Shown here: positions 61,903 through 64,000 of the stretch, one piece after another | How positions within the stretch are numbered: the stretch's first letter is position 1 | Layout: the number at the start of each line of letters is the position of its first letter | Translations under genes and position numbers: made by a program | Notes under the pieces: model-generated | What the model saw: only the letters and a program-made list of their open reading frames with translations | What the model was told of the DNA's origin: nothing | The model's database searches: none | NCBI RefSeq assembly: GCF_044324875.1 | Contig: NZ_CP172185.1 | Strand: one strand, 5' to 3' | Length of the DNA stretch: 64,000 bases | From: Escherichia coli | GTDB taxonomy: Bacteria > Pseudomonadota > Gammaproteobacteria > Enterobacterales > Enterobacteriaceae

Positions 61903-62107
61903 GAAAAGGCATTTACACAGAATCCTAAACAGGCTCCCGTCACGATACCCGGTATCAATCAATGAAGTCCATTTAATTGATGACGTCGAAGTTATGGCAT
62001 GTGTGACGATGCTGAGAAAGCGCCCTTTTTCAGGTGTTTTTTTAATCTTTTTGGGGTTTAAATTCCTATTGATGAACAACGCTTTCATTTACGGGACAAT
62101 GACCGGC

Positions 62108-62133
62108 AACGCTCCCGGTACACCGGGAGCGTT
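62108..62133 (-). terminator. candidate terminator hairpin 5 bp after scrY stop
   Basis: AACGCTCCCGG-TACA-CCGGGAGCGTT perfect 11-bp stem; no flanking T-run. Confidence 0.4.
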
Positions 62134-62138
62134 AGTGT

Positions 62139-63635
62139 TCAGAACCAGGTTTCCATCTGAACGCCAAAATTCCATTCCCCGCCTGCATTAAACCCGCTAC
62201 CGCCGAAAGCATCATCACTGGCGTAGTTATCCAGTCTGCTGCTCCAGTCCATCCAGGTGGCGAACAGACGCAGTTCCGGACGGCTGAAGAAGTCCCCCAG
62301 ACCTCCTGCCTTGAGGGTGGGCGCAAACGTCAGCTTGTAAAAACTGCCGTTAACAGCATTGCGGTCCTTATACCCTTCAGGTTTCAGATCCATGTACTGG
62401 TAAGTGCCCTCAAACGCCAGCGCAAAATTCTGCGTCACCTCCTTAATCAAGCGGGTGTTCAGGGTCACCCATTCATAACTGTCTCCACGGGCATAGCGAT
62501 CCTTACTGCCCTGCGCCATGACTGACGGGGCGATATGCCAGCCGTTTCCGAGCGGGGTGGTACCATATGCAGCAAGACGCCAAGTATCCGCATCACTGCG
62601 TAGTGCACCGTCAGAGCCAATCCCCTTCACTTCCGCCCCCAGACCATGCCCGTACAGAAGTGCTATTTTCGCCGTTCCCTCACGTAATCCCCAGAAACTG
62701 TCATTATGAAGTCCGGCCAACACATGCACACCGTGGCTGGCGGCACTGGCATGGATAAGGTCGCCATTATTGTCCCTGCGGTCATCATTATCCTTTGCCC
62801 GCATACCGCTGACCATAAGCTGGAACGGCCCGGCAAAGTGGTTCATGGTAAGGATATAGTTCTGGACGTTGTTATCGATATCCTCCATCTCCCCGAAATT
62901 GCGTCCATACAGGGAGAAGTTACTGCGCAGAGTGTCGTTCCATTTCACGTCATAGATACCGCCCCCGGTTCCGCCGAGGAAAACCACGTCCGAGTCCAGC
63001 CAGTGGATATCAAAGTTGTCACGATCGAAACGTTTACCCGCCCATACCGTACTGTGCTTCAGCGGCCCGGTGAAGTCCGGCAGATTTCCCAGTTCAGCCA
63101 CCACCTGGCGGACGTTAAGGTCACTGGAGTTCGCCGACCAGTCGTTATAGGTTTTCTGACCATCCGCCAGCATCACCTTAAACCGGGTGGTGGCCCCGCT
63201 TTCGAGCGTCTTTTTGTGCTCAAACACGGTTTCCACATAAGTGTCTCCCTCATTCCCGAGGCGCCCGACCGAGCCACCGGTCTCTCCGGCAGGCGTCAGA
63301 TACGGACCACTTTTGCTGCCGGATGCGGCATCGTTCATCAGCAGACCCGAGCGGGCATAACCGTGAAACTCAAAACCACTATTGTCCGCTTTCTTTTCCG
63401 GTGGTACGGATACGGTCTGTGGCACAACAGGTTGTGTCGCCGGGGTGGCGGCCAGTTGCTGCACCTGCTGTTCTGTAGCGGTTGCCCGTGATTCAGCCTT
63501 CTGAGCACGGGTTTCAGCATCCTGAAGCCGTTTTTCCAGGGCCGCCAGCCGGGCTTCAATACTGTCGGTATTCCCCGCCGCAAAGACCGGGGAACAGGCC
63601 AGCAGAATGGTACACGAGAGAAGGTGTTTTTTCAT
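62139..63635 (-). CDS. scrY: sucrose porin (ScrY, LamB-family maltoporin-like)
   Basis: 498-aa ORF with signal peptide [21 protein letters not shown], coiled-coil N-terminal extension, and C-terminal …[11 protein letters not shown]. Confidence 0.85.
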
Positions 63636-63734
63636 TTTTATATCCTTGTAAAAATAGAGGTATTGTTGACAGCTAAATCGATTTAGTCACCCGCAACAAA
63701 AATGACGTGCACAACGGTTACGGGCAGGAAACGG

Positions 63735-64000
63735 TCAGGGGTGTTTCAGTAAATCCTGGCGACGGGGTAACGCTGTCATGGCACCTTTTGCTGTCGTGGC
63801 AAGCGCACCACAGCGCTGGGCCTGTTCGATGACGGATGCGAGTGCCTGCTCACCGGAGGGCATCCCCTCTGCCGCCAGCGCTGCCAGCAGACCTGCCACG
63901 AAGGCGTCACCGGCACCGGTCGTGTCCACACTCACCACCGGTGTTGCCGGGAAGTACAGGTTTTTTCCCTGCCAGCGAGCCATCACGCCATCCTTTCCTT
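63735..64000 (-). CDS. scrK: fructokinase (ScrK, PfkB family), C-terminal part; 5' end beyond window
   Basis: …VVSVDTTGAGDAFVAGLLAALA… PfkB carbohydrate-kinase motif; upstream of scrY on the same strand. Confidence 0.75.
   Translation of the reverse strand, partial: GKDGVMARWQGKNLYFPATPVVSVDTTGAGDAFVAGLLAALAAEGMPSGEQALASVIEQAQRCGALATTAKGAMTALPRRQDLLKHP

Follow-up and report, generated by a model that had tools for sequence, protein, structure and literature searches.

The last 2.1 kb of the window, that is, of the whole 64,000-nucleotide stretch of Escherichia coli DNA considered here (contig NZ_CP172185.1), contain the 3' part of a fructokinase gene (scrK), an intact gene for a ScrY-family sugar porin and, in the spacer between them, a perfect 14-bp palindrome. 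Our analysis of this piece (positions 61903 to 64000) supports, with a probability of about 0.7, the conclusion that it is the 3' end of a composite raffinose/sucrose cluster of about 9.7 kb on a genomic island, an ordinary mosaic in which the ScrY-type porin and scrK were recruited from a sucrose (scr) regulon. The whole cluster would read rafR, rafA-rafB-rafD, a crr paralogue, a split DUF2913 gene, scrK and the porin gene, with about 2.55 kb of scr-derived DNA, from the start region of scrK to the hairpin behind scrY, spliced behind the raf genes at the position of rafY. All the features named in the initial annotation were found where it had placed them; they had been interpreted there as the remnant of a sucrose regulon whose downstream genes were replaced by insertion sequence (IS) fragments.

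In the arrangement that we propose, the porin would allow raffinose and sucrose to pass through the outer membrane, RafB would then import them, RafA and RafD would cleave the sugar in the cytoplasm and ScrK would phosphorylate the freed fructose. Fructokinase and porin would be the functions missing from the raf uptake and hydrolysis route. Since this route, which is independent of the phosphotransferase system (PTS), would supply both uptake and hydrolysis, scrA, scrB and scrR would not be needed, and they are absent from every copy.

The scr-derived genes and their raf neighbours

The residues of ScrK encoded in the window align with positions 220-302 of NF006957, a fructokinase model. The truncation is due only to the end of the window, as the full gene encodes 308 amino acids in the matching genomes, and the full-length homologue in the matching locus L001 reaches 477 bits, above the cut-off of 450. 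The product shares 65-69% amino acid identity with ScrK of canonical scr regulons. As for the porin, both domains of the ScrY family were recorded, namely PF02264 (LamB-type barrel) and PF11471 (N-terminal coiled-coil, Sugarporin_N), and residues 86-498 match the crystallised sucrose porin (PDB 1A0S) with 741 bits. Its amino acid identity to ScrY of four regulons with the full scrKYABR order is 69-79% (78.9% for pCC32, 75.6% for pMS6198B and 68.8% for CX07). Therefore, the assignment of the two genes to scrK and scrY holds, and permeation of sucrose and raffinose is predicted for the porin. The nearest relative outside the porin's own cluster is 78% identical, and none lies between this value and the cluster itself. 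P0112, considered as a closer porin relative with an intact scrA, was rejected: its apparent 86% match is only 75% at the DNA level, and it is an ordinary scr locus.

The porin gene is followed by an RNA hairpin with a predicted folding energy of -24.6 kcal/mol (z = -3.4), equalled by none of 200 shuffled sequences. Its stem, ACGCTCCCG...CGGGAGCGT, is also present in the scr loci of Enterobacter cloacae pCC32 and Logan. There is no U-run (T-run in the DNA) behind the stem, and the terminator scan made no call for it as an intrinsic terminator. In canonical regulons scrY and scrA belong to a single scrYAB transcription unit.

The same 2.1 kb occur, at 99.8% identity or more, in 181 of 5426 complete E. 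coli genomes (about 3%), and the same DNA is also found on E. coli and Salmonella plasmids. The upstream context was read at 15 loci representing 10 distinct gene contexts. In every one of them scrK is directly preceded by rafR (LacI-family regulator), rafA (GH36 alpha-galactosidase), rafB (LacY-type permease of the major facilitator superfamily), rafD (GH32 invertase), the crr paralogue (IIA-Glc type) and the split DUF2913 gene, with the exceptions of p135-1, which lacks rafR owing to an IS2 insertion, and of NT1W25, whose stretch begins within rafD. The last 11 kb of the window, up to its edge, are 99.96% collinear with the carrier BEN5202, and we strongly infer from the matching genomes, in which alone they are seen, that the same upstream genes are present in the window's own genome. 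The claim that the uptake and hydrolysis genes had been lost is hence an artefact of the window edge, rafA, rafB and rafD being located upstream of scrK in all the contexts read.

In the matching genomes the raf part has the composition of a raf operon, namely rafR, rafA, rafB and rafD together with paired RafR operators, CCGAATCGTTTCGG and CCGAAACGATTCGG, placed 21 bp apart upstream of rafA. The rafR-rafD block shares 79.7% DNA identity with the classical plasmid raf operon, and the homology stops near the rafD stop codon, a position at which pIP1206 carries a 464-amino-acid porin gene. From rafD onward, the gaps between the genes measure 64, 5, 61, 29 and 99 bp.

Homology to scr DNA extends from position 14351 to about 16894 of L001, equivalent to window coordinates 64650 to about 62107. 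Specifically, it begins 12 nt inside scrK and stops just past the hairpin behind the porin gene, 170 bp before the end of an IS1414 fragment, and the promoter/operator region that precedes scrK in canonical regulons is absent here. The hairpin and the IS256-family fragment (IS1414) do follow scrY in the order originally described. Searches by tblastn, with three ScrA and ScrB sequences as queries, detected no remnants of ScrA, ScrB or ScrR (E <= 1) in the 64-kb window or in three related loci, in agreement with the reported absence of these genes downstream; nor were scrR, scrA and scrB found within 15 kb beyond the window in the matching genomes (L001, L002). ScrA gave no match anywhere by tblastn, the sole ScrB-like match was RafD (37-40% identity), and the only LacI-family gene in the locus is RafR-like, with 25-28% identity to ScrR and a score of 83 bits on TIGR02417, the cut-off of which is 390. 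The approximately 170 bp past the hairpin were also compared with scrY-scrA spacers and with the 5' ends of scrA by Smith-Waterman alignment, without a significant score (z <= 1.3). The scr breakpoint is common to Salmonella plasmid copies (98.9% and 99.6% identity) that are free of IS1414. Because the breakpoint lies 170 bp away from the element and is shared by these IS1414-free copies, the IS fragments of the window are later neighbours and not the removers of scrA, scrB and scrR, and the proposal that they had replaced the downstream genes was abandoned.

Conservation was analysed in copies of the cluster differing by 0.8%, in which all the open reading frames (ORFs) are intact. The scrK gene shows nine synonymous and three non-synonymous changes; the changes between the two lineages are too few for the ratio of non-synonymous to synonymous rates to be decisive. 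The RafR operators are invariant between these copies, and the palindrome region holds 2 of the 14 intergenic differences. A separate observation concerns E. coli NT1W25 (L029, positions 2555-4412). Here the module has decayed: spacer, palindrome and signal peptide are lost through a deletion that joins the 5' half of scrK to the coiled-coil region of the porin. The IS1414 fragment of this copy is also longer than that of the window.

Two of the genes between rafD and scrK deserve a brief description. The crr paralogue (171 amino acids; L001 13213-13728, equivalent to window coordinates 65273-65788) scores 236 bits against an NCBIfam crr cut-off of 212. Beyond its own 99% cluster, the closest relatives are housekeeping Crr proteins with no more than 54-66% identity, which do not point to a donor. 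In a non-PTS raffinose operon such a protein could mediate inducer exclusion of RafB, or it could be a PTS relic. All copies, the 98.9% Salmonella lineage among them, have the DUF2913 gene (L001 13734-14310) divided into ORFs of 67 and 103 amino acids. Either the gene has long been a pseudogene, or the two ORFs are genuine small genes.

The ScrR-type palindrome and the scrK-porin spacer

The spacer between scrK and the porin gene contains the palindrome CTAAATCGATTTAG, exactly where it had been noticed. Perfect palindromes of 14 bp are not rare in the window, with nine occurrences against 3.9 +/- 1.9 in shuffled sequences; others lie at 34775, 35007, 38704, 38743 and elsewhere, 34775/35007 and 38704/38743 being close pairs. 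The sequence in the spacer corresponds exactly to the ScrR operator pattern CTAAAyCGrTTTAG, a 14-bp dyad with a central CG, and to CTAAAYCGRTTTAG, which combines two scr operator variants (C/T at position 6 and G/A at position 9) and is expected about 0.001 times per window. Compared with the commonest canonical form, CTAAACCGGTTTAG, 12 of 14 bases are identical. Each of the two deviating bases occurs singly in genuine scr operators, since in a compilation of 18 sites T is found at position 6 in three and A at position 9 in one.

Position leads to the same assignment. Six canonical scr regulons (from two E. coli plasmid types, Leclercia, Enterobacter, Pantoea and Klebsiella variicola) were compared, and all of them carry two TAAAyCGGTTTA sites, 58-60 bp apart, in a scrK-scrY spacer of 165-170 bp. 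In five of the six, another such site precedes scrK by about 40 nt; K. variicola, the exception, has no scrK gene. The canonical operators flank the -35/-10 elements of scrY on both sides (PMC11251922). An operator of this family would be bound by ScrR and freed by fructose or fructose-1-phosphate; ScrR binding has been demonstrated only for the pUR400 and Klebsiella operators (summarised in PMC11251922). In the window, the spacer is about 66 bp shorter and contains one operator, without the canonical scrY promoter. The palindrome aligns with the operators of the scrK-scrY spacer: it lies 49 nt from the scrK stop codon (50-55 nt for the canonical distal operator) and ends 36 nt before the porin ATG (41-43 nt for the proximal one). 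Its left half and flanking base, ACTAAATCG, are those of the distal operator of the two closest relatives. In addition, the recognition triplet of LacI-family proteins reads the NT-4 to NT-6 zone of the operator (PMC2978694), and at positions 4-6 from the centre the palindrome has the bases of the ScrR type, while RafR operators differ at two of them.

In conclusion, by sequence and position the palindrome is a member of the ScrR operator family, as the initial annotation had suggested in calling it a LacI-family, ScrR-like operator. The simplest account of the short spacer, suggested by its geometry and by ACTAAATCG, would be the loss of one operator-to-operator unit together with the promoter; the palindrome would then be the single ScrR-type operator left after removal of the unit carrying the scrY -35/-10 elements.

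As for expression, scrK and the porin gene would be distal genes of the raf transcription unit, under the control of RafR and raffinose/melibiose, given the tight gene spacing and the absence of the two canonical scr promoters. Transcription of the porin gene would most likely depend on read-through from the raf promoter or on a weak new promoter overlapping the palindrome. A candidate for the latter, GTGACT-17 bp-AACAAT, matches four of six bases in each hexamer in our own scan, equal to the canonical scrY promoters; a stricter promoter scan made no call in the spacer. A strong GC-rich hairpin with a stem of 9-10 bp trails rafD (L001 13159-13179), near the end of the homology to the classical raf operon, and it could attenuate read-through into the crr-scrK-porin genes.

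The E. coli copies read and one Salmonella lineage (L017-L020) show the palindrome in its perfect form. The other Salmonella lineage (L013-L016, L006; substitutions at the equivalents of 63684 and 63688) reads CTGAATCGATTTAG, with a G-to-T change four bases upstream of the substitution in the palindrome, and CTGAATCGATTTAG is a full match to the consensus of the global regulator Cra.

Candidate regulators and alternative readings

A query composed of three segments, a cluster-specific piece and two scrR types, was run against all E. coli genomes. It was found in 1259 places, in 1233 records of 1221 genomes, so that at most 38 genomes can hold two segments. Accordingly, no more than 38 of the approximately 181 carriers can also have a tested scrR type, and nine of nine sampled carrier chromosomes had the cluster segment only. 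The operator is largely orphaned, at least about 80% of the carriers being without the two tested scrR types. ScrR could nevertheless be supplied in trans in some hosts, because about one fifth of complete E. coli genomes carry the scr regulon; in two strain collections its carriage is 11-21% (PMC11251922). The view of the palindrome as an orphaned operator is supported for its surroundings and, as far as the two tested scrR types go, for most carriers. In most hosts the operator would be inert or bound by Cra, and where an scr regulon co-resides it could be bound by ScrR.

Cra (FruR) belongs with ScrR to the NCBIfam subfamily TIGR02417, on which ScrR scores 463-466 bits, its next-best match being the Cra model with 224-237 bits; the two regulators have also been grouped together (PMC4052901). 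Published Cra motifs are ctgaAtCGaTtcag and gcTGAAtCGaTTCAgc (PMC5888115) and RSTGAAWCSNTHHW (PMC5829826). The palindrome is equidistant from the ScrR and Cra consensus sequences (12/14 to each) and has a single mismatch to RSTGAAWCSNTHHW, at the G, with a full match in the Salmonella P0122 lineage. The resemblance is only suggestive of Cra binding.

The alternative readings concern both the operator and the cluster as a whole. We regard it as a serious possibility, though short of an even chance, that in hosts without scrR the palindrome is a functionless relic, its symmetry inherited or coincidental and without effect on expression. There is no cognate regulator in cis, the promoter that it formerly controlled is gone, the 98.9% Salmonella lineage has two substitutions in or adjoining it within the 99-bp spacer, and other perfect palindromes are common in the window; yet perfect dyad symmetry would rarely survive two independent changes in a neutral site, the palindrome is constant in all the E. 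coli variants read although another base of the spacer varies, and in the hosts with an scr regulon ScrR can meet it. Somewhat unlikely, in our judgement, is that the palindrome serves as a working operator for Cra, a protein present in every E. coli and the closest paralogue of ScrR. In this case Cra would repress the porin, and fructose-1-phosphate or a high glycolytic flux would lift the repression. The 12/14 agreement with the symmetric Cra motif includes all four high-information positions defined by chromatin immunoprecipitation with exonuclease digestion (ChIP-exo); the core AATCGATT is that of Cra sites, created exactly by the two symmetric changes from the canonical ScrR operator (C to T and G to A); the P0122 lineage reads ACTGAATCGATTTA, which fits the 14-bp Cra consensus completely; and, if the GTGACT/AACAAT promoter is real, an operator within its spacer would be in a repressing position. 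Against this, both half-sites lack the G of TGAA, canonical ScrR operators also fit the four high-information positions, which makes the likeness alone weak evidence for Cra, the bases T and A at positions 6 and 9 are each found in genuine ScrR operators, and the P0122 substitution, one change in one lineage, could be drift.

A stepwise version of the Cra reading would be regulatory capture: after the loss of ScrR and of the promoter, the operator would have drifted symmetrically from the ScrR form (core ACCGGT) to the Cra form (core ATCGAT), one Salmonella lineage would have added a TGAA half-site, and Cra would gate the acquired porin. We consider this unlikely; if true, it would represent a natural, stepwise handover of an operator from a local repressor to its global paralogue. 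Binding by RafR, which would create a second RafR-controlled checkpoint at the porin, appears very improbable. RafR is the sole LacI-family regulator encoded in the cluster, and the palindrome core is made up of the inner halves, CCGAATCG and CGATTCGG, of its two operators. However, the outer bases are unlike those of RafR operators (TA versus CG at positions 5-6 from the centre, within the NT-4 to NT-6 zone; PMC2978694), the recognition helix of RafR is of the TVSR type and that of ScrR of the TASL type, in proteins only 25-28% identical, and RafR sites have been reported only as pairs 21-22 bp apart (PMC4052901), whereas the palindrome is single. The last alternative, that the locus is a decaying scrKYABR leftover which lost scrA, scrB and scrR through IS activity and now consists of two useless genes with an orphan operator, is improbable. 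The absence of these three genes, the pile of IS fragments beginning 200 bp downstream of the porin gene, the fused copy in NT1W25 and the substitution inside the palindrome of one Salmonella lineage would fit it; but both ORFs are intact and near-identical in the 181 genomes and in plasmids of two genera, scrK and the porin gene always stand at the end of an intact raf cluster with permease and invertase, and the scr breakpoint precedes the IS1414 end by 170 bp and recurs in Salmonella copies without this element.

Several points weigh against the composite-cluster reading that we prefer. The upstream raf genes are visible only in matching genomes, outside the window. No published account of this composite was found in the literature, the function proposed for the cluster being deduced from its genes; in one genome paper, a 69-kb insertion in an avian ST167 strain is said to contain an operon 'rafRABDY', which might belong to the same island. 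The porin gene shows seven synonymous and nine non-synonymous changes between lineages, with no clear purifying selection. Read-through from raf is suggested by tight spacing and by the missing promoter, and it would have to pass the strong hairpin behind rafD; moreover, the 4/6 + 4/6 promoter candidate overlaps the palindrome. Finally, the model of a deletion between operators is based on geometry, and the similarity of the flanks to canonical spacers is not significant (z <= 2.1).

Relation to known systems and surrounding DNA

The scrKYABR regulons of pUR400, Klebsiella pneumoniae, E. coli B2/F chromosomes and IncF plasmids carry homologous scrK and scrY genes whose order and orientation are as in the window, with a ScrR-type palindrome between them and a homologous hairpin behind scrY, which is there scrY-scrA intergenic. 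In contrast, the present module, embedded behind raf genes, is without scrA, scrB, scrR and the scrK promoter/operator, and it has one operator in 99 bp instead of two in 165-170 bp, the scrY -35/-10 elements being missing. As a system, the locus is not a member of scrKYABR, since the three defining features (scrA/scrB, ScrR and the operator set) were tested and are lacking; judged by sequence, porin, kinase and operator are each members of their respective scr families.

The classical raf operon rafR-rafABD-rafY (pRSD2 type, e.g. pIP1206) shares with the cluster the order of its genes, the 79.7% DNA identity reported above, the paired RafR operators upstream of rafA and a glycoporin gene that closes the cluster. 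It differs in the terminal porin, which is of the ScrY family here and the 464-amino-acid protein in pIP1206, and in the absence of the three or four extra genes (crr paralogue, split DUF2913 and fructokinase) that lie here between rafD and the porin gene. RafY is reportedly unrelated in sequence to ScrY (Ulmke et al. 1997).

The csc regulon (cscB permease, cscA invertase, cscK fructokinase and cscR) would follow the same logic of H+-symport uptake, cytoplasmic GH32 hydrolysis and a fructokinase acting on the freed fructose, and in some genomes the PGAP label of the present scrK is 'cscK'. Its genes are non-orthologous, however, and it has no porin and a different regulator (PMC11251922). The Cra operators of E. 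coli share with the palindrome the 14-bp dyad, the central CG and the core AATCGATT, one lineage fitting RSTGAAWCSNTHHW fully, but the window site has an A in place of the G of TGAA in both halves. A literature search for Cra binding to scr operators retrieved no report.

Coordinates of the features discussed are collected in Table 1.

Table 1. Features of the 3' end of the window and of the adjoining IS fragments.
Feature	Position	Strand	Remarks
scrK 3' part (fructokinase, PfkB family)	63735-64000	-	ORF 63735-63986, open to window edge; 87 residues
scrK-porin intergenic spacer	63636-63734	-	99 bp; one operator; canonical scrY -35/-10 segment missing
Perfect palindrome CTAAATCGATTTAG	63673-63686	.	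ScrR-type (LacI-family) operator homologue
Weak candidate sigma-70 promoter (speculative)	63662-63690	-	GTGACT, 17 bp, AACAAT; palindrome within its spacer
ScrY-family sucrose/oligosaccharide porin, intact	62139-63635	-	498 amino acids; LamB and Sugarporin_N domains
Post-porin RNA hairpin	62107-62134	-	12-bp stem, 4 nt past porin stop; last scr-derived sequence
Non-scr spacer	61937-62106	.	170 bp; no detectable scr homology
IS1414 3' fragment (IS256 family)	61412-61936	+	Transposase C-terminus to 61902; terminal 34 bp 61903-61936
IS3-family transposase fragment	60351-61334	+	Profile NF033516/NF033517 set; L001/L002 annotation, converted coordinates
IS66 tnpC fragment	59753-60322	+	Profile NF033516/NF033517 set; L001/L002 annotation, converted coordinates

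The IS1414 fragment matches NF033543 with 159 bits over profile positions 202-336 of 338, in agreement with the PGAP annotation of L001 and L002; its 34-bp end is that of IS1414 ends in hundreds of genomes, and it is 99.7% identical to the IS1414 of pAPEC-O2-ColV. In the segment 56209-59699, a group II intron (ltrA, 56779-58287) lies inside an IS3-family element, and together with the IS66, IS3 and IS1414 fragments it makes up an IS graveyard between the porin gene and a type I restriction-modification locus (hsdM, 53549-55972). In the 170-bp non-scr spacer, positions 62012-62044 of the + strand, opposite to that of the porin gene, form a terminator-like hairpin with a T-run, possibly the 3' end left by a convergent gene after IS1414 had displaced its body.

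The Salmonella plasmid copies diverge from the window sequence at 62069 and E. coli p135-1 at 61977; at the equivalent of 62069, where all the Salmonella copies end, there is an adjacent IS200/IS605-type hairpin. The record of pAPEC-O2-ColV was considered as an independent context of the 128 bp adjacent to IS1414 and was rejected, as these abut a cloning-vector polylinker at its origin. In that record (NC_007675.1; L010/L012) the polylinker, GTCGAC...GCGGCCGCGAATTCACTAGTGATT, is joined to the 128 bp corresponding to window positions 61937-62064, followed by a complete IS1414 with astA, and the junction looks like an assembly or gap-closure artefact.

All together, what appeared at the edge of the window as the wreckage of a sucrose regulon would be the recruited tail of a widespread raffinose/sucrose cluster. 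Such a cluster mixes parts of three known systems and shows how catabolic operons are assembled from modules, and its spacer offers a small natural test case for the fate of an operator once its repressor has been left behind. Carriage of the cluster would probably account for the raffinose- or sucrose-positive phenotype of livestock-associated E. coli that possess neither scr nor csc.

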